Below, piece by piece: positions 15,335 through 59,499 of a DNA stretch of 64,000 bases. The position numbers and the translations under genes are program-made. Positions within the stretch are counted from its first letter, which is position 1. Every line of letters starts with the position of its first letter. The stretch comes from Chloroflexota bacterium (GTDB taxonomy: Bacteria > Chloroflexota > Limnocylindria > Limnocylindrales > CSP1-4): contig PLLE01000043.1 of NCBI GenBank assembly GCA_003141245.1, positions 36,542-100,541 of the forward strand. Direction: 5' to 3'. The notes beneath the pieces are model-generated. The model made no database searches, was not told the origin of the DNA, and worked only from the letters and a program-made list of their open reading frames with translations.

Positions 15335-15389
15335 CGAAGCCCGTCGCCCGCTCGGTTTCCGGTTGCGACTCCCTGCGGTGGCTTCTCAG

Positions 15390-15770
15390 GTGTGGCGGCG
15401 AGCCGGCCTGTAAGCCGAGTTCTGTACCGCGACTCTCGTCGCGGCGACGATCATCCATCTCTGGCCGCCGGTCACCCGACGGCTCAAGCGGCCGACCCGA
15501 GGACTGGGCAGCGCGACCTCTTCCGTCCGAACGACCGGCTTCCCGAACGCTCGAACCGCGTCCTCCTATTTGGCCTTGCTCCGAGCAGAGTTTGCCGCGT
15601 TTCACCTACCGCTCTCGAGTTGCCCCGAGACCGGCTACGTCTCTGTGGCACTGGTCCTCGCCTCACGGCGGACGGGCATTACCCGCTACCCTGCGCTGAG
15701 GAGCTCGGACTTTCCTCGCATGCCGGCCGAAACCGAACACGCGCGACCGTCCGACCGGCTCGCCGATGTC
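15390..15770 (-). ncRNA. rnpB: RNase P RNA, bacterial type A
   Basis: The minus strand reads ...GAGGAAAGUCCGAGCUCC...GGGUAAUGCCC...AGAGAUGGAUGAUCGUCGCC...ACAGAACUCGGCUUACAGGCCGGCUCGCCGCC. The P4 strands (AGGAAAGUCCG / ACAGAAC.CGGCUUA) and the CUAGAUGGAUG-like motif match the RNase P consensus. The 5' GGCGAGCCGG and 3' GGCCGGCUCGCC can pair as P1. The six-frame track covers this locus with spurious ORFs (15392..16399 and others). Confidence 0.85.
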
Positions 15771-15832
15771 GGATTCTAGTCCCGCGGCGAGGGCGGGCCA
15801 ACTCCGGACCGATTTCACGGCAGGAGGCGACG

Positions 15833-16399
15833 ATGGACCCTCAGGACGAGAGCCTGGCGGAGGGAGCCGCGTTCCGGATCCGACGCGCCGGAATCCCGGA
15901 CGCCCGTGCCATCGCCCAGATCGTCGTGGCCGGCTGGCAGGGCGCCTATCGTGGCCTGATGCCCGACGGATTCCTCGATTCGCTCTCGGTTGCGGGCCGC
16001 GAGACCGCCTGGCGAGAGATGCTGGCCCGCGACTCTGAGGGAGGCCTTCCTGCGTGGCTGGCACAGCGAGGGGGGCGGCCCGTCGGCTTCGTCAGCAGCG
16101 GCCGGCCACGGGACGACGACGTGCCACTCTCCACCGCCGAGGTCTACGCGATCTACGTCCTGCCGGAGACCTGGCGTGGCGGCGTCGGCCGGGCACTGTT
16201 GGGGACGGCCACGGGTCACTGGCGAGCGCGCGGATCCGGCACACTGGTCCTGTGGGTGCTCGAGGACAACGACCGGGCTTGCCGCTTCTACGAGGCGATG
16301 GGCTGGCAACCAGATGGGGGGCGCCAGGTGCTCGAGATCGCCGGTGCGAAGCTCTACGAGATCCGCTACCGACTCGGTCCGATCCATCCGGAGGGGTAG
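15833..16399 (+). CDS. GNAT family N-acetyltransferase (true start ATG at 15833, preceded by AGGAGG)
   Basis: Acetyl-CoA binding motif VGFVS...RGGVGRALL and a C-terminal FYEAMGW. The upstream part of the annotated ORF overlaps rnpB and is not coding. Confidence 0.75.
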   Translation: MDPQDESLAEGAAFRIRRAGIPDARAIAQIVVAGWQGAYRGLMPDGFLDSLSVAGRETAWREMLARDSEGGLPAWLAQRGGRPVGFVSSGRPRDDDVPLSTAEVYAIYVLPETWRGGVGRALLGTATGHWRARGSGTLVLWVLEDNDRACRFYEAMGWQPDGGRQVLEIAGAKLYEIRYRLGPIHPEG

Positions 16400-16452
16400 C
16401 ATTGGGGTCCGCCGGCGCGCCGGGCGCGGGCAGACTGAGCCGGGAGCGGACG

Positions 16453-17280
16453 ATGGCTGCCAAGGGCAAGAGTGGTGAGTTCCGGGCGCTTCTCGGCCTG
16501 AAGCCGGGCGACAAGGTCGACCTCGCCAAGTACGACTGTGGCGCGACCTTCGGCCGCAAGAAGGACGAGGCCGAAACCGAGCTGGCCGCCAATCTGGCGC
16601 GCCTTACCGACCTGCAGGCCCGAATCTGGGCGGAGGCAAAGCACGCGGTCCTGATCGTGCTCCAGGGCATCGACGCCGCCGGCAAGGACGGTACGATCAA
16701 GGTCATCGCAGGGGCCTTCAATCCCCAGGGCACGCCGGTGACCTCCTTCAAGGAGCCCTCCTCCCTGGAGCTCGCCCACGATTTCCTGTGGCGAATCCAC
16801 GCCGCCGTCCCGGAAAAGGGCGATATCGGGGTCTTCAATCGCAGCCACTACGAGCAGGTCCTCATCGTGCGTGTCCACGGCCTGGAACCCGAGGCGCGCT
16901 GGCGGAACCACTACCGCCAGATCAATGACTGGGAGGGCATGCTCACCCAGGAGGGCGTGACGATCCTCAAGTTCTTCCTGGCCATCGACAAGGACGAGCA
17001 GCGAAAGCGATTCCAGGATCGAGTCGACGACCCGACGAAGCGCTGGAAGATCTCGCCGACCGACCTCCCCGAGCGCCAGCGCTGGGCCGACTACCAGATC
17101 GCCTTCGAAGACATGCTCTTTGAGACGAGCACCGATTGGGCGCGCTGGCACGTGATCCCGGCCAACCACAACTGGCTGCGCGATCTCGCCATCAGCGAGA
17201 TCGTGGCCGACGCCCTCGACGATTTGAACCCGCAATACCCCGAACCGGCCGCCGGCATCGAGGGCCTCAAGATCGTCTGA
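16453..17280 (+). CDS. ppk2: Polyphosphate kinase 2 (PPK2) family protein, single domain
   Basis: Walker A GIDAAGKDGT, and PPK2 motifs FNRSHYE and FFLAIDKDEQRKRF; start at MAAKGKSGEF. Confidence 0.85.
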   Translation: MAAKGKSGEFRALLGLKPGDKVDLAKYDCGATFGRKKDEAETELAANLARLTDLQARIWAEAKHAVLIVLQGIDAAGKDGTIKVIAGAFNPQGTPVTSFKEPSSLELAHDFLWRIHAAVPEKGDIGVFNRSHYEQVLIVRVHGLEPEARWRNHYRQINDWEGMLTQEGVTILKFFLAIDKDEQRKRFQDRVDDPTKRWKISPTDLPERQRWADYQIAFEDMLFETSTDWARWHVIPANHNWLRDLAISEIVADALDDLNPQYPEPAAGIEGLKIV

Positions 17281-17580
17281 CGGCAGGTTTGGCGGCGCGG
17301 TCCGGGACGAACTGGCCAAATGCTTACCCGGGTAGCCCGAGGCGCGATCCTCTCGTGACGGCGTGCCTCGCGAGGCTCTCAGGGCGATCTCGACCGCCGG
17401 ACCCGAGCGCAAATCCGGCGCCGGAGTCGCGATCGGCAGGCTGACCGCCGACCACCAGCGGGCAGGATCGAGCCACGCGCCACTCCCATTTGCGTCTGGC
17501 AGGAAGCGACCGGCAACCCTTTCTATCCAGCCGTGCGCCCGCCCCGCCCTGTGACCGAACCTCTCGCCCGACCCACTCCC

Positions 17581-18198
17581 CTACTTCGGCCGGACCGCCA
17601 CCGCCCAAGGGCCGCCGGCCTGGACCCGATCGATCGCCTCGTTGCACAACGCGTCGGCCTGCTTGTTCTGGGCCCGCGGAACGTGAGTGGCGCTCCAACG
17701 CGCGAACCGCCCCAGACGAGCCTTCGCCTCGGCGTGGAGCGGGATCAGCTTCGAGTTCTTGACCCGCCAGCGGCCATGGAGCTGCTCGACGATCAGCTTC
17801 GAGTCGAGCAGCATCTCGACCTCGCGCCCGCCCAGTTCCTCGGCCAGGGCCAGGGCTCGCAGCACGGCAGTGTACTCGGCCACGTTGTTCGTCTGGACGC
17901 CGAGGTACTCCGAGATCGAGGCGAGCGGAGCCGCATCGGGGCGTCGCGAGCCGGGGGCCGAGGCATCGATCAGGACCGCGCCCAACGAGGCCGGCCCAGG
18001 GTTGCCCCGCGCCGCGCCGTCGGTCCGGACGACGAAGGCGCGCAGATCGCTGCCGCCGGCCGCCGAGCCGGCCCGGGCAGCAGGCCCGGCTCCAGCGCTT
18101 CCATCCGCACGGGACTCCCCCAGCCCGGCGTCTCCGGCCGCGCGGTCGTCCGGCCTGGCGCCCACCGACCGCCACAGCGAGTCCCACTCCGGATCCAT
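17581..18198 (-). CDS. rnhA: Ribonuclease HI with a low-complexity N-terminal extension
   Basis: C-terminal half has the RNase H catalytic core (VVRTDGAARGNPGPASLGAVLID...TNNVAEYTAVLRALALA...HVPRAQNKQADALCNEA). It starts 8 nt after the sdhB stop. Confidence 0.8.
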   Translation of the reverse strand: MDPEWDSLWRSVGARPDDRAAGDAGLGESRADGSAGAGPAARAGSAAGGSDLRAFVVRTDGAARGNPGPASLGAVLIDASAPGSRRPDAAPLASISEYLGVQTNNVAEYTAVLRALALAEELGGREVEMLLDSKLIVEQLHGRWRVKNSKLIPLHAEAKARLGRFARWSATHVPRAQNKQADALCNEAIDRVQAGGPWAVAVRPK

Positions 18199-18206
18199 TC
18201 TCCCGC

Positions 18207-29640: not shown

Positions 29641-30363
29641 TCAGCCGGTCACGAGCAGACCGGCCGATCCCAGCGTCGCCAGCCAGCCGGCTCCCATGAC
29701 GACCACGCCGACCGCCTGAACCTCCCAGCCCAGCCGCCGTGCCCGCTCGTTCGGGGAGGCCGCAAGACCCAACCCGAGCCAGCCCAGCACCGCTCCTGCC
29801 AACTCAGCGGCCAGGCTTGCCGGAAGCGGCCCGACGACCACCGATGAGGTCACGACGGCCAGCTGCAAGAGCCCCAGGGTGAAGGCGGATCCGACCAGGG
29901 CGCGACCCCGCCCGAGTGCAGTCGCCACGGAGGCGGCCCCCGCCAGTAGATCTCTTTCGAGATCGGCCAGGGCATTCGCGAGGGCCAGTGTCGTGCCGGC
30001 CACGAATGCCAGGGGCACGATCCCCCAGAAGGCGGGAGACAGCGTGCCGGCGACTCCAAGCCACGCGTACACGGGCAGTAGCCCTACGCCGAGAGCGAAT
30101 GGTACCCAGGAGACGGCGGTCCCCTTGAGACGGAGGTCGTAGATGAGCCCGTCGGCGAGTCCCAACACGCCGACGGCAAACGCCGCTACCCCCACCGAGC
30201 CGGCGGCGCACAACCCCGCGGACGAGGCGACAACCAGGACCGCCACCGCATGGCGCGGATTCACCAGGCCGGCCGGGATTGGCTTGTCGGGACGGCTGAC
30301 TCGATCTCGGGGGGCGTCGGCGAGGTCGTTGGCGGCACCGATGGCGAACTGCAGGCCCAGCAT
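29641..30363 (-). CDS. UbiA-family prenyltransferase. The ATG-initiated ORF is N-terminally short; the in-frame upstream region (to 30576) encodes further UbiA-like sequence but has no ATG/GTG/TTG.
   Basis: NDLADAPRD (first Asp-rich motif) sits at residues 11-19 of the ATG-started ORF. The 71 codons upstream in frame read ...RRSGLARLVGFFRLVHPFPSTLDAVAAATIAL..., which is typical of the start of UbiA helix 1. A TGA lies at 30577-30579. Confidence 0.6.
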   Translation of the reverse strand: MLGLQFAIGAANDLADAPRDRVSRPDKPIPAGLVNPRHAVAVLVVASSAGLCAAGSVGVAAFAVGVLGLADGLIYDLRLKGTAVSWVPFALGVGLLPVYAWLGVAGTLSPAFWGIVPLAFVAGTTLALANALADLERDLLAGAASVATALGRGRALVGSAFTLGLLQLAVVTSSVVVGPLPASLAAELAGAVLGWLGLGLAASPNERARRLGWEVQAVGVVVMGAGWLATLGSAGLLVTG

Positions 30364-30532: not shown

Positions 30533-30898
30533 TCAGACGTAGACGATCTCGTCGAAGTTGGCCACCAGGTACTCGATCAGGCGCGCCCTGGCATCGGGGA
30601 GCGCCGCCCGAAGCCCGCCCACGAGGCTGTGGAGTGAGATCGCCGGGACCATCAGATGGCCCTGGGCGTCGAAGCCGACCGTTTGGGGAGCGCCACCGCC
30701 ACGAGCGAATACCCGGCGCAGTTCCGCCTCGTCGAGGTGAGCGGTCCGCTGCACGTCGGTTAGGACCTTGATCACGCCCCGCCGCATGGCGACATCCCTC
30801 ATCAACTCCTTCGACCAGGAATCGAGCTGTTCGTCGGTCTGTTCGCCGAGTCTCTTGCGGTACTCCGTCGGATTGGCGGCAAGGCTCGTAGCGCCCAC
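30533..30898 (-). CDS. Hypothetical protein (121 aa), co-directional between the PlsC-like and UbiA genes
   Basis: ORF with consistent GC3 bias and no recognisable family motif; its 3' end overlaps the extended UbiA reading frame. Confidence 0.4.
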   Translation of the reverse strand: MGATSLAANPTEYRKRLGEQTDEQLDSWSKELMRDVAMRRGVIKVLTDVQRTAHLDEAELRRVFARGGGAPQTVGFDAQGHLMVPAISLHSLVGGLRAALPDARARLIEYLVANFDEIVYV

Positions 30899-31011: not shown

Positions 31012-31842
31012 CTACGACGTGGCCCCGGCCGAATCTCCTCGCGGTGGAACCGGTGGTCTTGACCCCTCGGGCCAGTCGTTGAAGAGCTCGGTCAGTCTGC
31101 CGCCGATCCAGCGCGATCGGGGTGGGTCGGGATAGTCATCCACCAACTCGAGGAGGGCGTCTCGGACCCGGGCCGTCAGAACACTGACGGCCTCTGGTGT
31201 CGGTCGATCCCCGCCGATCGGCGATGGCTGGATGGGCGGTCCTACTCTCACACGCACTTGCCTCCTGAAGGCCAGCCAGCTGGTTCCGTTGATGGCCATC
31301 GGAACGATCGGCACGCCCGACCGTAGCGCCATGTAGGCCGGGCCTTCCAGCAGCGGCAGGATCACAGCCTCGCCGGCGTGGATCCTTCCCTCCCCCGCGA
31401 TGGCGATTCGATCGCCGCGGATCAGCAGCTCCTCGACTCGGCGCGTGGCCGCGACAAGCCCGCGCTTGCCGGGCCGGTAGGGCAGAGCCACGCCGCCCCA
31501 ACGCATCAGGCGGTTCCGGACGCCGTGGGTCATGTCCTCCTGTTCGGGCCCGAAGAAGTGAATCCGCGGCCTATCGGGTAATGCAGCGATCACGAAGAAC
31601 GGGTCGACCCAGTTCTGGTGGCTGAAACAGACGATCGCCGGCCCGGAGGGCAGCAGCTCGGCTCCCTCCAGCCTGAATCCTGAATACGCCCTCGTAACGA
31701 CGCCCAGGGCGATCCTGATCAGCCGAAACCGTCGATACGACCTCGCGGGAGCCTGAACCCCGAGTCGATCGGCCCTGGACGCCGAGATCGGGACCGAATC
31801 GCCCCCCTCGGGCATTCGCTCGCCGGACGGCCTTCTGAACAT
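31012..31842 (-). CDS. plsC: 1-acyl-sn-glycerol-3-phosphate acyltransferase (PlsC/LPLAT) family protein; start at MFRRPSG
   Basis: Acyltransferase HX4D motif FSHQNWVDP plus FFGPEQE and PMAINGT blocks. The annotated 377-aa ORF's N-terminus runs through the opposite-strand promoter and is not coding. Confidence 0.7.
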   Translation of the reverse strand: MFRRPSGERMPEGGDSVPISASRADRLGVQAPARSYRRFRLIRIALGVVTRAYSGFRLEGAELLPSGPAIVCFSHQNWVDPFFVIAALPDRPRIHFFGPEQEDMTHGVRNRLMRWGGVALPYRPGKRGLVAATRRVEELLIRGDRIAIAGEGRIHAGEAVILPLLEGPAYMALRSGVPIVPMAINGTSWLAFRRQVRVRVGPPIQPSPIGGDRPTPEAVSVLTARVRDALLELVDDYPDPPRSRWIGGRLTELFNDWPEGSRPPVPPRGDSAGATS

Positions 31843-33759: not shown

Positions 33760-34599
33760 ATGACTCGAGACCGTCGTGCGACCGAGCCTTCGTCTCGGAT
33801 GACGGACACCGTGCCGCTCTTCGGACTGCGGCGGGTCGAGCAGATCATGGGCACCGCGATCGGGTTCGACGTACGCGACCCCGACATTCCCGGGGAGGCG
33901 CTCGACCGGGCATTCGATTACTTGCGCCAGGTCGACCTGCGCTTCAGCACCTACAAGCCCGAGAGCGAAGTCAGCCGCCTGAGCCGCGGCGAGATTGTCT
34001 CCGAGGACGAATACAGTCCGGAGCTGCGCCAGGTCCTGGAGCTGTGTGAGGAAGTACGTCAGACAAGCGACGGCTACTTCGACATCCGAGCACATCGATC
34101 CGGAGGCGGGCTGGATCCGTCCGGCCTCGTCAAGGGTTGGTCGCTCGAGGGCGCAGGCCGAATCCTCGAGGCCGCGGGAGCCCGCAACTTCTGCATCAAC
34201 GGCGGCGGCGACATCGTCGTGCGCGGCGAGGCCGCGCCGGCCACGCCCTGGCGAATCGGCATCCGACACCCGCTCCAGGCCGACAAGGTGGCCACGGTCG
34301 TGAGCGTCCGCGACGGGGCGATCGCCACGTCGGGCGCGTACGAGCGAGGCGAGCACGTGCGCGACCCCTTCACCGGGAAGGCGCCCGCCGGCGTGCTCAG
34401 CGTCACGATCGTCGGGCCGAGCCTGACCTACGCCGATGCCTACGCCACGGCCGCCTTCGCGATGGGACCGACCGGCCTTGCCTGGGTGGCCCGACTCGCA
34501 GGCTACGCCGGCTGCGCGATCACCGTCGACCCGGACGGTTCGAATGGACGCCTGACGTGGACCCCCGGCTTCGAGCGCTGCTTCGCCGACCACCGCTGA
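33760..34599 (+). CDS. apbE: FAD:protein FMN transferase (ApbE family)
   Basis: IMGTAIGFDV near the N-terminus, and GAIATSGAYERGEH and DAYATAAF motifs of the ApbE flavin transferase family. Confidence 0.8.
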   Translation: MTRDRRATEPSSRMTDTVPLFGLRRVEQIMGTAIGFDVRDPDIPGEALDRAFDYLRQVDLRFSTYKPESEVSRLSRGEIVSEDEYSPELRQVLELCEEVRQTSDGYFDIRAHRSGGGLDPSGLVKGWSLEGAGRILEAAGARNFCINGGGDIVVRGEAAPATPWRIGIRHPLQADKVATVVSVRDGAIATSGAYERGEHVRDPFTGKAPAGVLSVTIVGPSLTYADAYATAAFAMGPTGLAWVARLAGYAGCAITVDPDGSNGRLTWTPGFERCFADHR

Positions 34600-34669: not shown

Positions 34670-36037
34670 CTACCAGAGGAACGGTCGAATGCCCAGCGCC
34701 GACTGGGCGGCGATGGCCGCCAGATAGCCAGCCAGGAGCAAGAGCGCCACGACCATGTGCAGCTGGATGTTGGTCCCCATCGACGCCATGAGGGCGTAGG
34801 GGTTGTCGTAGAAGAGGATCAGACCGCCGTGAACCCGGCGGGCCAGCGGGACCGCCAGCAGCACTATGAGGGTGGGCACCGGCAACAGCCCGACCGCCAC
34901 TCCCCCGCCGACCGCCACGAATGCCGCGGCGGCGGCAACGTCCCAGCCGCGGATCACCGCCGCCTGCGACCAGCGCACCGGCAGCGTTCGCTTGCCCGCC
35001 TTCGCGTCGCCGGTCCGGTCGGGGATCTCATTCACATACAGGATGAGCATCACCAGCAGGGCAACGGGGATCGAGGCGACGAAGGCTTCCCAGGAGAGCG
35101 AGCCACGGGTCTGGACGACGTAGGCGCCGAGAAGCATCACCGGCCCGAACCCGATCGCGGTGGCAATCTCGCCCAGACCGCGATAGACCAGCTTGAACGG
35201 CGGCATGGTGTAGGCCAGGCTGATGAAGAGGCCGACAGCCGAGATGACGACCAGCGCCACGGACCCGCGCATGGCGAAGAGGGCCAGCCCCAACGCCCCG
35301 GCGAGGAGGTAGCAGCCGAGCGCCAGCAGCGACATGCCGCGCATGGAGATGAGCCCGTTCTGGAGGACGCGCGAGCCGCCGCTGAACTTGGTCGGCGTGG
35401 CGTTGGCGTCGTCGGCGCCCTGCATCGTGTCGAAGACGTCGTTGGCGACGTTGAGCCCGAAATGGACGACGCTGGCGGCCACGACGGTGATCAGCGCAGT
35501 CGCCGGGTCGAAGAACCCGGCCCGCGCCGCCACGGCCAGTCCGAGCAACACCGGCGCGAAGGTCGCGCTCAGGAACGGCGCCCGGGTCGCGCGAAAGAGC
35601 AGCCAGCCGGTCGAGAGCCGCGGACGAACCCTCCTACCGCGCTCGGCGGAGAGCGCCTCGAAGTAGCGACGGGCCTTGGGCACGTCGCGTTCGTAGGCGG
35701 CCGGGAGCGGCAGGTCGCGCTCATCCCAGGCCCACGTTCGGGTCACGCGAACGGCCAGGCGGCCGTGGGACTCGGCCGAGGCCGCGCCCCACGCAGTCAC
35801 GTGGCTGCGCTCGTCGAAGCCGCCCTGCAGGCCGGGCCGGATGTGGCTGCCCGTGACCGCGACGCTGGCACCGGTCGGAATCGCGAACCCGGTCGGGGCC
35901 GCGAATCGGACGATCCCCTCCCCCGCCCGGACCTCCGCCGCGACGACGACGTTGACCGGGTATCCGTCCTCTCCGACCCAGGCCAGGACCGCCTGCGGGA
36001 AATCCGCCAGCTTCGCGAGATCGTCGGTCGCGCTCAC
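34670..36037 (-). CDS. Fusion protein: N-terminal PNPOx-like / FDOR-like split beta-barrel domain (~150 aa) fused to a MenA-type (1,4-dihydroxy-2-naphthoate polyprenyltransferase-like) UbiA-family membrane prenyltransferase
   Basis: N-terminal domain AVLAWVGEDGYPVNVVVAAEVRAGEGIVRFAAP... is a PNPOx-like fold. The C-terminal domain has about 8 TM helices, the first Asp-rich motif NDVFDTMQGADD, and the MenA-type second motif YVNEIPDRTGDAKAGKRTLPVRW. The start overlaps (ATGA) the stop of the upstream PNPOx gene. Confidence 0.75.
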   Translation of the reverse strand: MSATDDLAKLADFPQAVLAWVGEDGYPVNVVVAAEVRAGEGIVRFAAPTGFAIPTGASVAVTGSHIRPGLQGGFDERSHVTAWGAASAESHGRLAVRVTRTWAWDERDLPLPAAYERDVPKARRYFEALSAERGRRVRPRLSTGWLLFRATRAPFLSATFAPVLLGLAVAARAGFFDPATALITVVAASVVHFGLNVANDVFDTMQGADDANATPTKFSGGSRVLQNGLISMRGMSLLALGCYLLAGALGLALFAMRGSVALVVISAVGLFISLAYTMPPFKLVYRGLGEIATAIGFGPVMLLGAYVVQTRGSLSWEAFVASIPVALLVMLILYVNEIPDRTGDAKAGKRTLPVRWSQAAVIRGWDVAAAAAFVAVGGGVAVGLLPVPTLIVLLAVPLARRVHGGLILFYDNPYALMASMGTNIQLHMVVALLLLAGYLAAIAAQSALGIRPFLW

Positions 36038-36600
36038 CGGGCCGCCTCTGCCGTGTTCACCGCGGGTGCGCCGTCGGTTCGGCCGTCGGCCCAGTAGAGC
36101 GTCCGCTTGGGAGTGAGTTCGATCAGCGCCCGTTCAAAGATCAGCGGGAACCCCACGCGCGCCTTCAGCAGCGCCGGGATCGAGGGATCCTTGCGTCCGA
36201 TCTCGGGCAGCAGGCGCTCCCACCCGGAGTGAAGATCGTCCTCGATCACGCGCGCGTCGCCCTGGATCGTGGCTCGCTCGGTCCTGCCGGCCGACGTGGC
36301 CGGGTCGGTCACGGAGAGGCAGACCCTGGGGTTCGACTTGATGTGGCCGAGCTTTCGGCTGTCGAGCGCGCTCGAGGTCATGACAATGCGGTCGTCATCG
36401 AGGACCGGCACGAGCGGATAGGTCATCGGACGGCCGTCTTCCGCGACGACCGTCAACTCGCCGACGAGGGCAGCGTCCACCAGGCGCGCAACCGGATCAG
36501 GCAGCAAGGGCACGTTGATCTCCGAGACGGGACGACAATGGGAAGGTGGCCGCGCAGATTGTACGTGCCTAGCGGGCCCGGTCACGGTCCGGGGAGCCAC
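36034..36600 (-). CDS. Pyridoxamine 5'-phosphate oxidase-family (PPOX-class, possibly F420/FMN-dependent) split-barrel protein; the start may be internal (GTG at 36513)
   Basis: LVGELTVVAEDGRPMTYPLVPVLDDDRIVMTSSALDSRKLGHIKSNPRVCLSV is the typical PNPOx-like signature. Confidence 0.65.
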   Translation of the reverse strand: MAPRTVTGPARHVQSARPPSHCRPVSEINVPLLPDPVARLVDAALVGELTVVAEDGRPMTYPLVPVLDDDRIVMTSSALDSRKLGHIKSNPRVCLSVTDPATSAGRTERATIQGDARVIEDDLHSGWERLLPEIGRKDPSIPALLKARVGFPLIFERALIELTPKRTLYWADGRTDGAPAVNTAEAAR

Positions 36601-37330
36601 CGAAGAGGCGGACCGAAGCGGCGCTGGCCTCGTGCTGCTCCGTGGTGATCAACTGGCGGCGATCCGACGTGCTGTTGTGGGCGTACTCGGCGAGGGCCTT
36701 CTGCAGCGTCTCCAATCGGGCGAGCTGGACGGCCAGGACCCCGCTCCAACGGCTCTGCACTTCCTTCGGGCCGGCGGCCGCGGCAGTCCACAGCGCGCAC
36801 ATGTCGTCCAGGCAGATCTCGCCGCCGCCCAGCGCCGCGGACCACGCCGCATCCGCCGAGAGCTCCAGAAGCCGGCTCACCGCCGTCCGCGAGGCCTCCT
36901 CGGCCCGGGCGCATACGGGGCACCGGGGCGCGGCCAGTTCCGCCAGCCGACGCCCCTGCGCGGCGGCGTTCGCGCCTGAGAGCTTCTCCAGGGCCGCCAG
37001 GCGCCGCCGCAGGATGGCGTCCAGCAGAACCGCCGTAGCGAGCTGGCTGCTCGTCTGCAGCAGCTCCATCTTCGAGAGGCCGACGCTGTGCGGCTGGCAG
37101 AAGCCCACGCCCTTGTCCAGCTCTGCCCGGAAGCCCCTGTCCGTAGCCCCCTCGCGCGCCAGACCGCGCAGGGCCGCGTGGGAGGCCTCCTGGCGGGCAT
37201 CGCAGATCGGGCAGCGACCGCCCTCGAGGGCCTCGGCCAGGCGGATCTCCTCGAAATCGCGAGCGGGCAGCTTGCCCGGCTGCCCGCTCATCGGTCGAGT
37301 GTCGTTACGATCGGCCACGTCATCGGCCAA
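36569..37330 (-). CDS. Hypothetical protein with two tandem zinc-ribbon-like modules (CPxC...C..H and CPxC...C..C)
   Basis: Internal duplication: RCPICDARQEASHAALRGLA...FCQPH and RCPVCARAEEASRTAVSRLL...ICLDDMCALW; I recognise no family. Confidence 0.45.
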   Translation of the reverse strand: MADDVADRNDTRPMSGQPGKLPARDFEEIRLAEALEGGRCPICDARQEASHAALRGLAREGATDRGFRAELDKGVGFCQPHSVGLSKMELLQTSSQLATAVLLDAILRRRLAALEKLSGANAAAQGRRLAELAAPRCPVCARAEEASRTAVSRLLELSADAAWSAALGGGEICLDDMCALWTAAAAGPKEVQSRWSGVLAVQLARLETLQKALAEYAHNSTSDRRQLITTEQHEASAASVRLFGGSPDRDRAR

Positions 37331-37343
37331 GCCTAGCTCCCCA

Positions 37344-38078
37344 TCAACCCCGCCGCGTCATCGCCGCGTACGTGACCGCAAAGCCGAGCACGCACCACAC
37401 CGCAAGCGTCAGGAACGCACCGGGCGGCAGGGGGAATTCGTTCGGCGCGATAGTGCCGCGGGTCACCTCACCCATCGCCTGGATCGGCAGTAGCCGGTGG
37501 ATCGTCTCCAGCCAGCCAGGCAGCTTGTCGGGCAGGAAGGTCAGCGGCGAGAACATGAAGACGAAGACGACGATCGCCTGGGTGATGATCACGGTGAGCA
37601 TGTACGGCAGGACTGACGCCAGGGCGTAGCCCACGCAAGTCGAGGTCAAGGCCACCATCAGAACGGCTGGGATGACCAGCGGGCTGACCTGCAGGTCCAG
37701 GCCGAACCGCCAGGCCCCAACGAGCACGCCCAGGACCACACCCGGCACGACGATCGCGAGCCAGACCGTGAGGTCGGCGACAAGGTAGGAAAGCCTCGGG
37801 ACCGGCAGCGAGCGCATGTAGGCGAGGCTGCCCTCTGTCTTCTGCTCGCCCACCGTCTGGGGCAGGGCCACCAGTCCGACCGAGAGCATGGAGATCGCAG
37901 GCGCGCCGGTGGCGATCAGGTAGACCGTCACCCGGTCCAGCGTCGGGAAGAGAAGCGGATAGCCGAGCACGATACCGAGCGAGAAGAGGGTCTGAACCGC
38001 CATCATCAACGGCAGGTAGGCCTTCTTGCGCAGGGCCTGCCAGGTCACGAGCAACCGATAGCTACGCAGCGCTTGCAT
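37344..38078 (-). CDS. ABC-2 type transporter permease (start at MQALRSY)
   Basis: Six predicted TM helices, an ABC-2 family fold, and a 17-nt overlap with the upstream ATPase gene. Confidence 0.7.
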   Translation of the reverse strand: MQALRSYRLLVTWQALRKKAYLPLMMAVQTLFSLGIVLGYPLLFPTLDRVTVYLIATGAPAISMLSVGLVALPQTVGEQKTEGSLAYMRSLPVPRLSYLVADLTVWLAIVVPGVVLGVLVGAWRFGLDLQVSPLVIPAVLMVALTSTCVGYALASVLPYMLTVIITQAIVVFVFMFSPLTFLPDKLPGWLETIHRLLPIQAMGEVTRGTIAPNEFPLPPGAFLTLAVWCVLGFAVTYAAMTRRG

Positions 38079-39024
38079 CGAAGCTCTCCTCCGTCTCGGC
38101 GGGTCGGACGTCTCCACCTCCGACCAGCGCCACATACACGTCTTCCAGCGTCGCCGGCCCGAGGGTGAACTCCTCGACCGCTCCGGCCCGTTGCAGCGAT
38201 TCGGCCCAGGCGACGGCGGGGCCGGCGGCGTCCATCGGGACACCGACCATCAGCCGATTACCGACCGCGACGACCGACCGACCGAACGGCGAGACCGGCG
38301 CCTCGGCCGCTCTGGGGTCGACGACGAGCTCCAGCCGAAGCTCCGCGCCGAGGACGGCCTTGAGCTCCGCCGGCGTCCCCTCGGCGATGACCCGGCCCGC
38401 GTCGAGGATCGCCAGGCGATCCACCGAGCGCTCTGCCTCGATGACGTTGTGCGTGACCAGCAGCACCGCGGCGCCGTCGTCGGCGAGCGCCCGCACTTGC
38501 TGCCACAGCAGCCGGCGGCGGACCGGATCCACGTCGTTGGTCGGCTCGTCGAGCATCACCAGGCGGCCCGGGGCGACCGAGGCCATGGCGAAAGCCACCA
38601 GCCGCTTGACGCCACCGGAGAGCCGGGCCGCGTCTACGTCGAGCCACTCCCCGAGTTCGAGGGCGTCGACGAGAATCCCGCGGCGGCGCCGAACCTCCGC
38701 CTTGGACGCGCCGCGCAACTGGCCGAGCAGCTCGATCGCCTGGCGCGGCGTCAGGCCGTCGATCGGGACCTGGGCCTGAGCCTGGAACGAGCACAGCCGG
38801 CGGGCCAGCCCCGGGTCCGCGACCAGGTCATGACCGTCGATCAGGATGGAGCCGGAGGTCGGCTTGAGCAGCCCCACGACCTGGTTGACGAGGGTCGTCT
38901 TGCCGGCGCCGTTGTGGCCGAGCAGACCGAAGACTTCACCCTCCTCGACCGACAGGGTGATGCCGTCGTTGGCCCTTGTTCCGGTCCGGTACACCTTGGT
39001 CAGGTTCTCGATTTCCAGCAACAT
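38062..39024 (-). CDS. ABC transporter ATP-binding protein (ABC-2/DrrA-like exporter ATPase)
   Basis: Walker A GHNGAGKTT, signature LSGGVKRL and Walker B LVMLDEPTNDVD. Confidence 0.85.
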   Translation of the reverse strand: MLLEIENLTKVYRTGTRANDGITLSVEEGEVFGLLGHNGAGKTTLVNQVVGLLKPTSGSILIDGHDLVADPGLARRLCSFQAQAQVPIDGLTPRQAIELLGQLRGASKAEVRRRRGILVDALELGEWLDVDAARLSGGVKRLVAFAMASVAPGRLVMLDEPTNDVDPVRRRLLWQQVRALADDGAAVLLVTHNVIEAERSVDRLAILDAGRVIAEGTPAELKAVLGAELRLELVVDPRAAEAPVSPFGRSVVAVGNRLMVGVPMDAAGPAVAWAESLQRAGAVEEFTLGPATLEDVYVALVGGGDVRPAETEESFDASAA

Positions 39025-39208: not shown

Positions 39209-39643
39209 CTACTCGATGGCTATCCGAACCTCGTCGCCATCGTCGGAGACCTCCAGAATCGGCCCGGTCATCCCGCTCCGGATCGCCTCCGCGATGCGGG
39301 ACCGGTGGTCCGGCGAAAGACCCGGCACCTGGTCGATCGCGAACCCCGCCGCAGCCAGAGGGATCTGAAGGTTGATTACCTGGCGGCCCTTCTCGGCCAC
39401 ATAGACTCTGATCTTACGACCGTCGAGCAGCTCTTGGGCACCGCCGGCTCGACGGCCTCCTTCACGGCCGGTCTCCTTTGCGCTTTGGCGCGCGCCGGCG
39501 GCGCCGGAACCGGTTCCGACGCCGTTGGGGCGAGTCTCGCTGGGGGCTCTCTCCTCGAGTGCGGCCACGATCGGCGCCGCTTCCTCGGCCGTGATGCGGC
39601 CCTCCGAAACGAGACGGAGCAATACCTCCAGCGCACCGGACAT
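39209..39643 (-). CDS. Small hypothetical protein with a SHOCT-like N-terminal motif
   Basis: LVSEGRITAEEAAPIVAALEE resembles SHOCT/DUF1707 segments; it is the last gene of the DUF2089-DUF4097 string. Confidence 0.4.
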   Translation of the reverse strand: MSGALEVLLRLVSEGRITAEEAAPIVAALEERAPSETRPNGVGTGSGAAGARQSAKETGREGGRRAGGAQELLDGRKIRVYVAEKGRQVINLQIPLAAAGFAIDQVPGLSPDHRSRIAEAIRSGMTGPILEVSDDGDEVRIAIE

Positions 39644-39648
39644 CGCCG

Positions 39649-40821
39649 CTACCTCCCCGTCCGGTCGAGCCGCGACGCGGCCTCGTCGACCCCGATCTCG
39701 CCTCGCTCGAGGGCCTGGAGGATCGCCAGCGCATCATCGTCGGCCTGGTCGTCGCGGGCATGGTCGGCGGCTTCCTCGACGGTCTCGTCCGGGTTCCAGC
39801 TCTCCGCCGACCCATCGGCCGGCGCTTCGGTGGTGGGGGTCGCGGCTGCCACGGCGGCGGTGGCGCCTGGTTGTGGCCGAGCGGTATCGCCGCTGGCGAC
39901 GGCCGCATGGGTCTCGGCCGGCGCGGGCTCGCTTCGCCCGGGGCCAGCGACAGGTTGCGTGGCGGCCGCCCTGCCGGAGGTGCCGACGACCGTGTCGGAT
40001 GGGCGAGGCGCCAGCAGACGCAACGAGCCCGAGGTCGAATTGACTCGCAGGTTCGCCCGCCCGTCGCCGACGATCGCTCGCCAGAACCCACGCGTGCCCT
40101 CGATGTGGCGCTCGATTTCGGAGTGGATCGAGCCCGAGACCGTCTTGAGCTCGGCGCTGACTCCGGATAGAGGCGTGAAGTCCACGCTGCCGGAGATCGA
40201 CTCGGCGCGGTGGTCGCCCGCCGGGTCCAGGGCTCCGACGACGATCATGCTGCCGCTCGTCGTCGAGAGGCTCAGGTCGTGGAAGAGGCCGGCGCGGGCC
40301 TTGATGCCGCCGGAGATGGTGCTGGCCCGGAGGCGCAGCGCCGATCCGCCGTCTAGGGTGATGCCGCCCGAGATGGTTCCGGCCTCCACGTGTCCGCCCA
40401 GATTCCACATGCGGATCTCGCCCGAGACCGTCCTGTACTTCTGGTCGCCGACGAGATTCTCGGCCTCGATGGAGCCGCTCAACGTCTCGAACCGGAGCTT
40501 CGTGCCCCAGGGGGCCTCGACGAGAACGTCGGCGCTGACCCGGGCGCCGCCGAAGAGCCAGGCCAGGCCCGTGGAGAGCCGCCGCTCCGGCGTCTCGATC
40601 TCGAGCGAACCGTCGCCGCGCTCGATGGCCACGCGGCCGCTGTCGAGGGCTCGTTCGGCGGAGGCGTGGTCGGTCGCCCTAATGCGATAAGCCACCGTCA
40701 CGCGCGCGTCGTCACCGTCGATCCCTCGGACGCGAACCAGGCCGGTGACGGTCTTGACCGAAAGCCGTCCGGCGGAACCCAATCGATGCGTGAGCGACTC
40801 CCGGCGCTCCAGCGTGCCCAT
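39649..40821 (-). CDS. DUF4097-family (LiaG/YvlB-like, putative beta-helical adhesin-like) protein with a Pro/Ala-rich spacer and a C-terminal SHOCT-like tail
   Basis: Repeated TVSGSI / TISGGI / SISGSV beta-strand repeats characteristic of DUF4097; C-terminal ALAILQALERGEIGVDEAASRL. Confidence 0.6.
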   Translation of the reverse strand: MGTLERRESLTHRLGSAGRLSVKTVTGLVRVRGIDGDDARVTVAYRIRATDHASAERALDSGRVAIERGDGSLEIETPERRLSTGLAWLFGGARVSADVLVEAPWGTKLRFETLSGSIEAENLVGDQKYRTVSGEIRMWNLGGHVEAGTISGGITLDGGSALRLRASTISGGIKARAGLFHDLSLSTTSGSMIVVGALDPAGDHRAESISGSVDFTPLSGVSAELKTVSGSIHSEIERHIEGTRGFWRAIVGDGRANLRVNSTSGSLRLLAPRPSDTVVGTSGRAAATQPVAGPGRSEPAPAETHAAVASGDTARPQPGATAAVAAATPTTEAPADGSAESWNPDETVEEAADHARDDQADDDALAILQALERGEIGVDEAASRLDRTGR

Positions 40822-40824
40822 CTC

Positions 40825-41298
40825 CTACTCCTTCCGAGAGCGGATCAGGGCCGCGGCCTCGTCCGCCGTGATCTCATGTCGAGCCAGCCGCTCCAGAACC
40901 TCGCGGCGCAGCCCACTCATCTCACCCCGCCCCGAACCGTCGTCAGAGCCGTCGTCGGCGAAGGTGCCTTCCGCCAGGCCGAGCGCCCGAACGAGGGCGT
41001 CGATCCGAGCGCGGACCGTCGGGTAGGAGAGCTTGAGTTCCCGCTCCAGCTCCTTCAGGTTGCCCCGAGCGCGCAGGAAGCTCTCCAGGAGAGCCAGCTG
41101 CTCGCGGCTCAGGCGCCCAAAGCGGCCGACGCTGAAGTCGCCCTCGATGGCGGTGCCGCAGCTTCGACATTGCAGCCGGGTCACGAACAGCTCGCTCGAG
41201 CAGACCGGACAGGTCGAGATCACGTCGCGTGTCATTGGTACCGTCACTCCGGAGATCACGACCGGCCAGTGGCTGGTCTGGACCTCGTGAGTTGTCAC
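40825..41298 (-). CDS. DUF2089-family protein (zinc ribbon plus HTH; YvlA-like). Probable GTG start.
   Basis: CPVCSSEL...CRSCG zinc-ribbon, then LSREQLALLESFLRARGNLKELERELKLSYPTVRARI, an HTH. Confidence 0.6.
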   Translation of the reverse strand: MTTHEVQTSHWPVVISGVTVPMTRDVISTCPVCSSELFVTRLQCRSCGTAIEGDFSVGRFGRLSREQLALLESFLRARGNLKELERELKLSYPTVRARIDALVRALGLAEGTFADDGSDDGSGRGEMSGLRREVLERLARHEITADEAAALIRSRKE

Positions 41299-41373: not shown

Positions 41374-41517
41374 GGCCGGCCGGAGACGGGCATGACGGCC
41401 CGAGTCGCCGGATTCGGCCGGTGAGCGCGCGGTCCCGGACTTCAGAGCCGTCTGGTGTAGGGGGTATAGATTCGCCTCGACGGCGCGCGATGCGCCTTCG
41501 ATCTCCTGGAGGCGCAA

Positions 41518-42098
41518 TGGCTCGTCGGGTCTACCTAATCGAGAATCCCGATCGTTTCGTCGCCGGCGCGGTCGGTCAGCCGGGCAGCCGCATCTTCTAT
41601 CTGCAGGCCCGCGAGGGCTCTCGCGTCGTCACCGTCGTCCTGGAAAAGACCCAGGTCGCGCTGCTCGCGGAACGCCTGAGCGAGCTGCTGGCGGAGGTGC
41701 GCAGCCGCGGCGCGGACGTGCCCGACGATCTATCGACCGACGAGGTGGACCGGGCTCCCCTCGAAGAGCCCCTCGTCGAGGCCTTCCGGGTCGGGACGAT
41801 GGCGATCGTATGGGACGGAGACGACGAGAGCGTCGTCGTGGAGGCGCGCGAGGTCAAGGTAGACGAGGGCGACGAGGGCGACGAAGAGACGGACGAAGAG
41901 ACGGACGAAGCCGCGGACGACGAGGACGACGAAGACGGCGACCTCATGCGCGTCCACATGGAGCCGCGCAAGGCGCTCGCATTCGCCGGCCGAGCCCTGG
42001 AAGTCGTCGCGGCGGGCCGGCCGCCGTGCCCTTTCTGCGGCCAGCCACTCAACGCCGAGGGCCACATCTGCACCCGCCGAAACGGCTACATGCACTGA
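41518..42098 (+). CDS. DUF3090-family protein (three-Cys-motif partner of SCO1664-family proteins) with an internal poly-acidic tandem repeat
   Basis: C-terminus PPCPFCGQPLNAEGHICTRRNGYMH is the family's characteristic ending. The middle is DEGDEGDEETDEETDEAADDEDDEDGD, encoded by tandem 9/12-nt repeats. The start is MARRVYLIENPDRF, preceded by GGAGG. Confidence 0.65.
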
Positions 42099-42105
42099 GA
42101 TCGAG

Positions 42106-42939
42106 ATGGCCGAATCGAGAGCAGACGAGAGCCGCAGTCAGGCCGAGTCGCGTCTCACTCGCGAGGAGATGGAAGCAGCCGCCCTCGACGGACGTCAGGT
42201 CGGCGGCGAGATCGACACGGAGACCGCGCTGCGAGTCCTCAACGACGGCGAGCTGACCGTCGTGGGCAGGCTGCTGTCGGCCTCGAACGCGACCTTCTTC
42301 TGTCTCGTGGAGGAGCATCGGCCCGGCGGCGAGCCAGGGCCGATCGCCAGTTGCGTCTACAAACCGATCCGCGGCGAGCGGCCCCTGATCGACTTCCCCG
42401 ACGGGACCCTGGCCTGCCGCGAGGCGGCCGCTTACGCCGTCTCGGAGGCGAGCGGCTGGAACCTGATCCCACCCACAGTGCTGCGCGACGGACCCTTCGG
42501 CCCGGGCATGGTCCAACTCTGGATGGAGGCCGACGAGACGGTCGACGTGGCCGCGCTCATCGGCGACGACCTCCCCGCACTGCGCCGCATCGCCCTCTTC
42601 GACGCCGTCCTCAACAACGCCGACCGCAAGGGCGGGCACCTGCTGCCACTCCCCGACGGGCGGATCCTGGGCATCGACAACGGGCTGTGCTTCGCCGTCG
42701 AGCCGAAGCTGAGGACGGTCCTGTGGCTGTGGCGCGGTCAGCCGCTGGACGAAGACGAAGTTACGGCGCTGTCGCGTTTGCGCGAGCGACTGGGTGGGAC
42801 GCTGGGCGAGCAGCTGCGCGCGCTGCTGGTGCCGACCGAAATACTCGCGACGGTGCGACGGATCGACGGCCTGCTGACCAACCGCCGCTTCCCCCTCCCC
42901 GACCGCGATCGGCCGGCCATTCCATGGCCGCCGTTCTAG
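42106..42939 (+). CDS. SCO1664-family protein (actinobacterial PI3/4-kinase-like fold, function unknown)
   Basis: LTVVGRLLSASNATFFCLVEEH...VYKPIRGERPL...NNADRKGGHLL...LGIDNGLCF. The last two blocks resemble kinase catalytic-loop and DxG regions. It is tightly linked (7 nt) to the DUF3090 gene. Confidence 0.65.
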   Translation: MAESRADESRSQAESRLTREEMEAAALDGRQVGGEIDTETALRVLNDGELTVVGRLLSASNATFFCLVEEHRPGGEPGPIASCVYKPIRGERPLIDFPDGTLACREAAAYAVSEASGWNLIPPTVLRDGPFGPGMVQLWMEADETVDVAALIGDDLPALRRIALFDAVLNNADRKGGHLLPLPDGRILGIDNGLCFAVEPKLRTVLWLWRGQPLDEDEVTALSRLRERLGGTLGEQLRALLVPTEILATVRRIDGLLTNRRFPLPDRDRPAIPWPPF

Positions 42940-54900: not shown

Positions 54901-55755
54901 CTACTTGAGCATCGCCAGCATGACGGCGTGGTGGCGCGGCGAGGCAGCCAGGCACGACCACTTCTTAGCAGGGTAGGCCAGGTCGAACCATGGCCTGCCC
55001 TCCAGGTCGGTGACGGTGGCGCCGGCCCCTTCGGCGATGAGCCCGGCCGCGGCCACGTCCCAGGCGGAGAGCCCGGCGCCCTGGGCGTAGACGTCGAACC
55101 GGCCGCAGCCCACGTAGGCCAGAGTCAGCGCGGCGGAGCCCATCGAGCGGTGGGCGCGGATGGCCTTGAGCGCCTCGCGGCGCTTATGGACGGTGCCGCG
55201 ACCGCCGACGGCGAGTGTGGCGACCAGGTCCCCGAGAAACTCCTTGTCGGCAACGTGGATCGGCTCCCCATTGCGAAGAGACGGCCCGTCGATCGCCCCG
55301 GCGAACGTCTCGTCGCGAGTCGGGTCGTAGACCACGCCCACGACCGGACGACCCTCGGCCGCCAGCGCGATCGAGATGCAGAAGAACGGAATGCCGTTGG
55401 CGTAGTTGATCGTGCCGTCGAGCGGATCGACGATCCAGACCCGGCCCGACTTCGTGACGCTCTTTGCGGCCACCTCGCCGATCTCCTCGGCGTAGAACGA
55501 ATCGCTCGGGTAGCGCTCCTGGACGGCCCGCATGACCAGGCCCTCGCACAGGTGGTCCACCTCCGTCACGACGTCGCGCGGCCCTTTGGCCCGGATCTGT
55601 TCGAGCCGCTCGTAGCGCTCCATCTGGATTCGACCGGCCTGGTGGGCCAGATCGATGGCCAGCTCGATCTCAGGGCCGTAGGCAGCCGACCGGCCAAGCC
55701 GGCTCAGCCGGGCCCTCGACTCGGCGGTCGATTCGGCGGTCGATTCGAAGGCCAT
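54901..55755 (-). CDS. Inositol monophosphatase family protein (SuhB/ImpA/CysQ-like); start at MAFESTAESTAES
   Basis: EEIGE..., WIVDPLDGTINYANG and WDVAAAGLIAEGAG motifs. Its start ATG shares a base with the deoD TGA stop. Confidence 0.8.
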   Translation of the reverse strand: MAFESTAESTAESRARLSRLGRSAAYGPEIELAIDLAHQAGRIQMERYERLEQIRAKGPRDVVTEVDHLCEGLVMRAVQERYPSDSFYAEEIGEVAAKSVTKSGRVWIVDPLDGTINYANGIPFFCISIALAAEGRPVVGVVYDPTRDETFAGAIDGPSLRNGEPIHVADKEFLGDLVATLAVGGRGTVHKRREALKAIRAHRSMGSAALTLAYVGCGRFDVYAQGAGLSAWDVAAAGLIAEGAGATVTDLEGRPWFDLAYPAKKWSCLAASPRHHAVMLAMLK

Positions 55756-56501
55756 CAGACCGCGATCCCGGCTTCGAGGGCGATCTCGATCGTCGGCTCG
55801 ATCGATCGGTTCAGCTGATCGAGCGGAAGGTACGACTCCTCGGAGGTGGCTTCCTCGGAGAGCACGTCGCTGACCGTCAGGATCGCCGCCGCGGCGACCT
55901 CCCCGCCGGCCGCCTTCGCTCGCGACGCCAGGTAGTACAGGACCGAGGTCTCCATTTCGAAGGCCAGGACGCCGCGGCTGCGCCATTTGGAGAAGTCGTC
56001 CGAGTCGGGGTTGTAGAAGACGTCGACCGTGGCGACCTGGCCGACGTGTGGCTTCTGGCCGTGGCGCTCCGCCGCTTCAATGAGCGACCGGACCAGGCCG
56101 AAATCGGCCGTCGGCGCGTAGGGCTCGCCGTGGAGGTAGGTGCGGGTGGCGCCGTCGACAGGCGCGGCCGACAAAGCAATCACGATCTCGCCGGTCTTGA
56201 TCCCGGGCCCGATGCCGCCGCAGGTGCCGACACGCACGAAGCGTCTCGCGCCCAGGCGGAGCAGCTCCTCGAGGACGATCGACATGCTCGGCGCGCCCAT
56301 GCCGCTGGTCTGGACGCTCACCGGAACGCCGTGGTAGGTCCCCGTGTAGCCGAGCAACCCGCGGTGGGAGTTGACCAGTCGGGCGGCGCCGGGGCCGCCG
56401 TCGAACTTCTCGGCGATCCAGGTGGCGCGGTTCGGGTCGCCAGGGAGCAGCACTAGTGGAGCGTAGTCGTCCGGTTGGGCCCGGAGGTGGATCTGAGGCA
56501 T
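55755..56501 (-). CDS. deoD: Purine nucleoside phosphorylase, DeoD type (PNP/UDP family 1)
   Basis: PLVLLPGDPNRATWIAEKF...LGYTGTYHGVPVSVQTSGMGAPS...RVGTCGG...EMET. Confidence 0.8.
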   Translation of the reverse strand: MPQIHLRAQPDDYAPLVLLPGDPNRATWIAEKFDGGPGAARLVNSHRGLLGYTGTYHGVPVSVQTSGMGAPSMSIVLEELLRLGARRFVRVGTCGGIGPGIKTGEIVIALSAAPVDGATRTYLHGEPYAPTADFGLVRSLIEAAERHGQKPHVGQVATVDVFYNPDSDDFSKWRSRGVLAFEMETSVLYYLASRAKAAGGEVAAAAILTVSDVLSEEATSEESYLPLDQLNRSIEPTIEIALEAGIAV

Positions 56502-59461: not shown

Positions 59462-59499
59462 CGGAGAAGCCCGGCAAGCGGTCCACCGGAGGAGACGAG

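Follow-up and report, generated by a model that had tools for sequence, protein, structure and literature searches.

The locus described here raises the question of what a MenA-like membrane prenyltransferase does with a soluble split-barrel domain at its N-terminus, and with a second, free split-barrel protein encoded directly in front of it. It lies in a 64,000-nucleotide stretch of a Limnocylindria-class Chloroflexota contig (PLLE01000043.1, positions 36,542 to 100,541; hereafter the window), which is chromosomal DNA of ~69% GC and also encodes the dcw cell-wall cluster, succinate dehydrogenase, tricarboxylic acid cycle genes, and parAB. An earlier reading of the letters (the original prediction) had described a fusion of a barrel of the pyridoxamine 5'-phosphate oxidase (PNPOx)/flavin-deazaflavin oxidoreductase (FDOR) type to MenA, together with a free PNPOx-like protein and a duplicated zinc-ribbon protein. 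Our analysis revealed that the fusion is genuine and that its pairing with the PNPOx-like gene is conserved. At a probability of about 45%, we read the pair as a MenA-type quinone prenyltransferase with a docked flavin- or deazaflavin-dependent reductase, reduction of the substrate (or product) being coupled to prenylation.

Three minus-strand open reading frames with the same direction were found where they had been placed, at 34670-36037 (455 aa), 36034-36600, and 36569-37330. The features on which the argument turns are as follows.

34670-36037, minus strand: fusion gene, 455 aa, split-barrel N-terminal domain (N-domain) plus MenA-like UbiA domain (open reading frame, full-length homologues)
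35603-36037, minus strand: N-domain, residues 1-145
34673-35602, minus strand: UbiA/MenA-like membrane domain, residues 146-455 (PF01040, NCBIfam, UBIAD1 match, hydropathy)
35408-35443, minus strand: first Asp-rich motif, NDVFDTMQGADD, residues 199-210, at the cytoplasmic end of transmembrane helix (TM) 2 (translation)
34970-35038, minus strand: second Asp-rich motif, YVNEIPDRTGDAKAGKRTLPVRW, residues 334-356, after TM6 (translation)
36034-36513, minus strand: free PNPOx-like partner, 159 aa (PF01243, E 6e-11)
36558-36585, minus strand: sigma-70-like promoter match GTGACC-16-TACAAT (consensus scan only, no evidence of function)
36569-37330, minus strand: DUF6062 protein with two CPxC...C modules (Pfam, repeat test)

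An exhaustive HMMER search of 1.84 billion representative proteins (clusters at 50% identity) with a profile of the N-domain returned 180 clusters at E ≤ 1e-3. In complete proteins the domain forms the N-terminus of a 440-470-aa UbiA protein, and no convincing free-standing copy was seen among the 180 clusters. A word-indexed search with the N-domain alone gave three short fragments; its index seems to favour targets of similar length. When one genome per GTDB species was scanned with family-specific motifs from the full-length alignment, at least 580 relatives were found, and the best 80 were examined. Nearly all of these 80 loci belong to metagenome-assembled genomes (MAGs) of Limnocylindria-type Chloroflexota. 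Distant members showed 34-48% identity and include a cluster annotated as Candidatus Caldarchaeales; one member of 28% GC has archaeal neighbours (NurA, a HerA-type DUF87 protein, and an archaeal riboflavin reductase), and another locus (L090, Caldarchaeales-type) lies near genes for tRNA-intron endonuclease, archease, and aeRF1. The carriers are Limnocylindria-class Chloroflexota and some archaea, not Actinobacteria.

Some individual loci showed further features. In L090, genes for the alpha and beta subunits of electron-transfer flavoprotein (7676-9426, minus strand) lie divergently and directly 5' of the partner (9505-9999) and fusion genes, and a UbiA gene resembling digeranylgeranylglyceryl phosphate synthase and a geranylgeranyl-reductase-family gene are found within 8 kb. 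In a distant relative of 59% GC (L086), a ComA-family (2R)-phospho-3-sulfolactate synthase gene (2090-2944, plus strand) lies directly 3' of the fusion gene and is followed by MmgE/PrpD. Five loci whose identity to the query, 57-61%, is like that of the Limnocylindria loci (L074, L076, L084, L034, and L080) come from MAGs labelled Polarisedimenticolia, Saccharimonadales, Verrucomicrobiia, or Anaerolineaceae; they are probably mis-binned contigs and not true spread.

Long open frames arise by chance in DNA of ~70% GC, and the N-domain sequence matches no known family, as would be expected if the fusion were a frameshift, an assembly join, or an over-extended start in a high-GC frame. However, the same continuous architecture was present in all 120 best homologues, which come from independent assemblies, and in the best 80 genome loci, including the complete chromosome OY969885.1; all of these matched from residue 1-7. 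The architecture also occurs in the archaeon of 28% GC. Within the window, the N-domain is coded in frame with a GC content at third codon positions of 0.89, and the two other frames contain stops. Its residues are conserved, with 44-90% identity across all 120 best homologues, and its structural model is confident. We therefore give practically no credence to an artefact.

The GTG start of the fusion gene overlaps the TGA stop of the upstream PNPOx-like gene by 4 nt (junction GGTGA), with GAGG located 8-9 nt 5' of it. The conserved start of the partner is the GTG at 36513 (MPLLPDPV...), with GGAG 7 nt 5', and a 55-nt gap separates it from the DUF6062 stop at 36569. All three genes had been described as overlapping; this is true of the PNPOx/fusion pair (GTGA) but not of DUF6062 and PNPOx, which are separated by that gap. 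The sigma-70-like match lies at the gap, ~45 nt 5' of the partner start, and the consensus scan gave 2 sites against 0.2 expected.

Neighbourhoods were counted in 85 loci. The partner is directly 5' of the fusion gene on the same strand in 81 of them, and the other four end at a contig edge. Spacing was tallied in 86 loci carrying both genes: the 4-nt start/stop overlap was found in 74, a 1-nt overlap in seven, a gap of 1-2 nt in three, a gap of 21 nt in one, and an in-frame join in one (L079). The prediction of a further PNPOx-like protein, separate from the fusion but coupled to it in translation, was thus borne out. Distant bacterial and archaeal loci also have an unambiguous partner orthologue upstream (hmmsearch E 1e-43 to 1e-55), and the arrangement is the same in distant relatives of 28-68% GC. 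Single proteins with the order partner/N-domain/UbiA were found in five cases (P0059, P0111, P0152, P0208, and L079), and the order N-domain/partner-like/UbiA in two (P0247 and P0251), where the middle domain matches the partner profile weakly (E 2e-4 and 0.36, respectively). Since the partner is upstream in every locus that is long enough, and since in-frame fusions occur, the core unit is partner plus fusion, two genes and sometimes one. The pairing is more general than a single locus, the module being conserved across a bacterial class and some archaea.

In L079 (CAWGQH010000001.1, ~9500-11377), the partner reading frame runs on through the whole fusion gene without a break or change of frame, giving a natural three-domain protein. 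Many Limnocylindria orthologues carry a Pro/Ala/Glu-rich, apparently disordered extension of 50-160 aa before the N-domain (for example L004:8001-9797, L005:8001-9737, and proteins P0008-P0094), which the window copy lacks. This extension starts precisely at the partner stop codon, its first residues forming the conserved motif MSPxxR(L/M)P, and is linker-like, as if partner and fusion were one protein split by a stop and a frame change.

The upstream gene is PNPOx-like, as proposed, with 43.2 bits against a cut-off of 28.1 for PF01243 (PNPOx_N), and its homologues are annotated PF01243/PF12900. Its nearest solved relative is the F420 reductase MSMEG_3380 (3f7e, E 5.7e-7), with Rv2991 and the flavin adenine dinucleotide-binding Mll6688 also among the nearest. 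The partner retains the canonical cofactor-helix motif TSSxxxSRKLxHIxxNPRV.

The C-terminal half is a UbiA-type prenyltransferase: PF01040 covers residues 160-400 of the 455-aa protein (E 1.2e-27, 97.3 bits against a gathering threshold of 34.2), and both Asp-rich motifs quoted earlier were found in the translation. In an alignment of bacterial and archaeal members, N199, D200, D203, and D209 of the first motif and Y334, N336, P339, D340, D344, K349, and R355 of the second are invariant, and a PT(P/K/Q)(F/Y)SGGSR segment behind the first motif is specific to the family. MenA models took eight of the nine best NCBIfam places, and the ten MenA-type models gave E values from 6e-39 to 1e-11 (models scored: TIGR00751, NF004749-54, NF009926, and TIGR02235); the next UbiA subfamilies, PRK12884 and chlorophyll synthase, matched far less well (E 4e-7 to 2e-6). 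Grouping with a non-quinone subfamily, the best of which reaches only E 4e-7 against 6e-39 for MenA, is not supported. The closest solved structure to this half is human UBIAD1 (8djk, top PDB match, E 4e-13). MenA and UBIAD1 are therefore the closest of the UbiA subfamilies, and this part of the MenA-type assignment stands; the part that would require a curated cut-off does not, as discussed below. Succinate dehydrogenase is encoded in the window, which implies a membrane quinone, and the fusion appears to be the quinone prenyltransferase of Limnocylindria and the archaeal carriers. A PNP_UDP_1 gene at 55755-56501 was considered as futalosine hydrolase (MqnB) and rejected, as it is DeoD-like.

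Hydropathy predicts nine TM helices and an intracellular N-terminus, the N-in topology that is standard for UbiA proteins. TM1 follows a run with seven basic residues, the stretch RGRRVRPRLSTGWLLFRATR leading from the N-domain into it. Given this stretch and the position of the Asp-rich motifs after TM2 and TM6, the active site and the barrel, which is ahead of TM1, are both placed in the cytoplasm, in agreement with the topology that had been expected.

The N-domain was modelled with AlphaFold 2 (residues 1-150, 108-sequence alignment) at a predicted local distance difference test (pLDDT) score of 84.5; a single-sequence model of the whole protein reached 48.6. The model consists of a helix at 3-10, barrel strands spanning 16-105, and amphipathic helices at 111-133. 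Residues G25, G73, R77, G84, W104, and Y125 are invariant, with D105 and E106 present in at least 90% of members, and together they match no known flavin signature. The PNPOx/FDOR assignment of this domain holds for the predicted split-barrel fold, on the basis of the model and structure comparison, but not for sequence profiles, none of which matched. The Ddn (FDOR-A) type named in the original prediction does not fit, as both barrels instead resemble dimeric FDOR-B/PNPOx proteins. The N-domain and the fusion architecture are absent from Pfam and NCBIfam, and neither the architecture of the split-barrel/MenA fusion nor quinone synthesis in Limnocylindria is described in the literature searched; the original prediction had likewise placed this architecture outside the characterised menaquinone and ubiquinone pathways.

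A block of F420-related genes in the window bears on whether the cofactor might be a deazaflavin.

59021-63071, plus strand: block of F420-related genes outside the module, at a distance of 23 kb from the fusion gene (NCBIfam)
59021-59461, plus strand: PPOX-class protein
59500-60489, plus strand: F420-type LLM oxidoreductase (TIGR03557)
60629-61579, plus strand: cofD (314 against a cut-off of 257)
61576-62223, plus strand: cofC (156 against 105)
62220-63071, plus strand: cofE (252 against 181)

The organism encodes F420 biosynthesis genes, as had been proposed, with cofC, cofD, and cofE all passing their equivalog cut-offs. The gene called fgd exceeds the cut-off of the TIGR03557 family model (297 against 210) but not that of the Fgd model TIGR03554 (216 against 420), so that this name was not retained. 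The window yielded neither of the FO synthase genes, cofG and cofH. In the low-GC archaeon, both scored above cut-off 7-10 kb from the fusion orthologue; this radical S-adenosylmethionine pair was also considered as MqnC/MqnE, which was rejected on the CofH and CofG scores. The F420 gene context is compatible with a deazaflavin cofactor.

We propose the following mechanism, which is plausible on the sequence evidence. The 455-aa protein would be the MenA-type polyprenyltransferase of this lineage, and its most likely substrate would be 1,4-dihydroxy-2-naphthoate (DHNA) or a close naphthoquinol, leading toward menaquinone. The N-domain is a divergent split barrel that shares its side of the membrane with both Asp-rich catalytic loops and has probably lost its own canonical nucleotide-binding helix. 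It would offer a half-barrel onto which the PNPOx/FDOR-B-like partner docks, a separate gene product whose translational coupling would keep the two proteins equal in amount. Joined in this way, the barrels would act as a flavin- or deazaflavin-dependent oxidoreductase tethered to the membrane, with one functional site, keeping or regenerating the oxygen-labile head group as hydroquinone at the mouth of the prenyltransferase, or reducing the product for the next step. The analysis establishes the domain architecture, the fold, the topology as far as hydropathy goes, the conserved pairing with its recurrent fusions, and the presence of F420 biosynthesis genes; we infer the heterodimer, the identity of the cofactor and of the aromatic substrate, and the direction and purpose of the redox step.

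Pairing of the degenerate barrel with the partner barrel is favoured because PNPOx-like proteins are dimers that hold their cofactor sites at the subunit interface. Redox-coupled prenylation is favoured because UbiA-type aromatic prenylation requires an electron-rich hydroquinone ring, because DHNA and menadiol are readily oxidised in air, and because late phylloquinone synthesis in cyanobacteria and plants, in which the quinol form is needed, requires a dedicated reductase (NdbB/NDC1) beside MenA/MenG. A further reason is that FDORs reduce quinones (PMC8498797).

Several results weigh against this proposal, and the first group concerns the barrels. Among 22 diverse N-domain members, none was matched by the PNPOx-like Pfam families, even at E values up to 10; a profile search gave no PDB sequence match for the domain, and its comparison with the partner family gave an hhalign probability of 1.9%. 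Canonical PNPOx members carry an S/T..K phosphate-binding motif on a helix between strands 3 and 4. This motif is absent from the N-domain, and in the model a loop at 47-57 joins strand 42-46 to strand 58-68 where the helix would be expected. With the phosphate-binding helix missing from the model, cofactor binding by the fused barrel itself is doubtful, and the N-domain may bind nothing, or a non-flavin ligand. The partner is also below the F420-specific PPOX cut-offs (TIGR03618, 44.5 against 79.05; TIGR03666, 30.3 against 84.9; TIGR03667, 27 against 125.3), and the co-occurrence of the module with F420 genes in two lineages is anecdotal and carries no statistics.

In the main rival explanation, the enzyme is of the MenA type, whereas the barrel fused to it has no cofactor and acts in ligand binding, as a chaperone, or in regulation, and no redox step is coupled to prenylation. 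The barrel might then bind DHNA or some other aromatic acid, or control access to the active site, with the partner doing unrelated or merely neighbouring work (heme or flavin handling, or general stress functions). However, the partner is coupled to the fusion gene by an overlap of 1-4 nt nearly everywhere and is fused to it in two orders, a pattern that is difficult to account for unless the proteins form a physical and functional complex. The partner has also retained the PNPOx cofactor motif in canonical form, and its sequence aligns with that of an F420 reductase. We consider a cofactor-free barrel unlikely, although worth keeping in view.

The second group of contrary results concerns the prenyltransferase. 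All ten MenA models scored below their curated cut-offs, the best being NF004751 (134 against 264); TIGR00751 gave 75 against 102.15 here and 96.6 against 102.15 for the archaeal orthologue. As every curated cut-off was missed, MenA orthology is not established. In addition, no men or mqn genes were seen near the module in the window and the flanks of the 85 loci.

The missed equivalog cut-offs and the lack of nearby men or mqn genes would also fit a UbiA domain that prenylates an acceptor other than DHNA, presented by the two barrels (a flavin, a deazaflavin, or a phenazine-like or tetrapyrrole-derived compound), yielding a new redox carrier with a lipid anchor, much as methanophenazine is built. 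The family-specific PT(P/K/Q)(F/Y)SGGSR segment after the first Asp box and the frequent ABC-2 exporter neighbour point in the same direction, and split barrels are able to bind flavins, F420, prenylated flavin mononucleotide (PhdC; Foldseek 1.3e-3), and heme. Against this, MenA and UBIAD1 are the closest relatives, ~30 orders of magnitude in E-value ahead of other UbiA subfamilies, the archaeal orthologue nearly reaches the menA cut-off, quinone-dependent respiration genes are present and require a quinone prenyltransferase, and the alternative substrate has no positive evidence. We regard such an acceptor as improbable.

A bolder version of the redox-coupled reading would pair the two barrels as an asymmetric heterodimer whose only deazaflavin or flavin site sits immediately above the cavity of the prenyltransferase, making it the first redox-coupled UbiA enzyme. 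F420H2 would reduce the aromatic substrate in situ just ahead of prenylation, or a head group other than a naphthoquinone would be prenylated into a new membrane electron carrier, and the module would be an ancient one common to Limnocylindria and Caldarchaeales-type archaea. In this full form, the idea appears improbable to us.

Comparison with known systems revealed both likenesses and differences. The UbiA half shares with MenA and UBIAD1 the fold, nine predicted TM helices, and the MenA-type motifs N-D-x-x-D-x-x-x-G-x-D and N-x-x-x-D-x-x-x-D-x-x-x-G-K-x-T-L. Unlike them, the family adds the cytoplasmic split barrel of ~140 aa, the PTxFSGGSR insert, and a constant PNPOx-like gene partner; we know of no characterised MenA or UBIAD1 with a cytoplasmic split-barrel domain. 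The mycobacterial FDOR-B/PNPOx proteins (MSMEG_6526, MSMEG_5243, MSMEG_3380, Rv1155, and Rv2074) have the fold in common with the N-domain (by structure) and the partner (by sequence). However, they are soluble homodimers, whereas in the module one barrel is part of a membrane enzyme and lacks both the sequence signature and the cofactor helix, and the partner belongs to a distinct family of ~160 aa below the F420-PPOX cut-offs. NdbB/NDC1 differs in being a type II NAD(P)H dehydrogenase of another fold that is neither fused to nor encoded with menA. Ddn and the FDOR-A1 group are split-barrel deazaflavin enzymes that act on menaquinone at the membrane (PMC8498797), and it is in this sense that their likeness to the module is conceptual.

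The fusion protein is annotated as plain MenA, although its first ~140 residues fit no described family. The module suggests an uncharacterised redox-assisted step in quinone synthesis. If the barrels feed electrons to the site of prenylation, a hydroquinone intermediate sensitive to oxygen would be protected in a manner that is new, and should F420H2 be the donor, F420 would also have a new role in physiology outside Actinobacteria and methanogens. Even on a conservative reading, the results delimit a domain family that is new (~180 clusters at 50% identity) and a gene pair that is invariant, and either can improve annotation. The two proteins (160 + 455 aa) make up a small, self-contained pair. 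In soils and fresh waters, Limnocylindria rank among the most abundant Chloroflexota, and the archaeal carriers belong to little-studied thermophilic lineages.

The genes around the core pair are less constant. Besides DUF6062, the immediate neighbours are the following.

33799-34599, plus strand: ApbE-family flavin transferase, convergent with the fusion gene (PF02424, E 5.8e-44)
37344-39024, minus strand: ATP-binding cassette (ABC)-2 type exporter, permease 37344-38078 and ATPase 38062-39024 (Pfam and NCBIfam, DrrA/NodI-like)

DUF6062 (PF19538, 28.5 bits against 27; 240 aa from the gene caller's start at 37291) accompanies the core pair in 22 of the 85 loci, in the nearest clade only. Its description as a duplicated zinc-ribbon protein was confirmed by the modules CPIC...CQPH and CPVC...CLDDMC and by an internal repeat score of 64, against 31 ± 5 for shuffled sequences (0 of 300 shuffles reached 64). 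A function for DUF6062 is not described in the literature searched. In a more distant clade (L003), the small gene that separates the ABC transporter from the partner was considered as a diverged DUF6062 and rejected; it is unrelated and has no CPxC.

ApbE was found in 25 of the 85 loci, also in the nearest clade only. Neither possible start version has an evident signal peptide or lipobox, and the protein would be cytoplasmic. Flavinylation of one of the barrels by ApbE was considered and rejected, as no conserved [S/T]GA[S/T]-type target was visible by eye in either barrel and ApbE is clade-restricted. In the Listeria flavin-based extracellular electron transfer locus, the MenA paralogue DmkA occurs with the ApbE-like FmnB, and the window likewise has a MenA-like prenyltransferase gene adjoining an ApbE-family gene. 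Unlike the Listeria locus, ApbE here is limited to those 25 loci, convergent, and without a signal peptide. None of the annotated neighbours resembles PplA, Ndh2, or EetAB, although no search aimed at these was made.

A homologue of the ABC-2 ATPase lies near the fusion gene in 76 of the 85 loci; the transporter is upstream on the same strand in the window, while Limnocylindria of the more distant clade keep it adjacent but in divergent orientation. Genes for adenine glycosylase, MarR, PlsC, and a second, small UbiA protein are syntenic in the nearest clade only. This second UbiA gene (29641-30363, minus strand, 240 aa) has as its best models PRK12884 and others of the geranylgeranylglyceryl phosphate-transferase-like, archaeal type, all below cut-off. 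It adjoins a gene for a 121-aa conserved protein without a family match (30533-30898, minus strand) and one for a PlsC-like acyltransferase (31012-31815, minus strand). The trio is kept in the nearest clade (17-25 of the 85 loci) and may be a lipid-synthesis module.

Directly 5' of the ABC transporter (39209-41298, minus strand) are genes for a DUF2089 zinc-ribbon/helix-turn-helix protein, a DUF4097 (LiaG-like) protein, and a 144-aa protein that is SHOCT-like in relatives. These three occur with the transporter in 21 loci of the nearest clade and could be a stress-sensing unit controlling the exporter. In the 4.4 kb at 13800-18200, which separate sdhB from the mraZ side of the dcw cluster, a filter based on GC content at third codon positions found no convincing gene, although long open reading frames are present on both strands. 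At 41421-42939 (plus strand), a DUF3090 protein gene adjoins a TIGR03843 (SCO1664 family) gene; both products are conserved hypotheticals of families better known from Actinobacteria.

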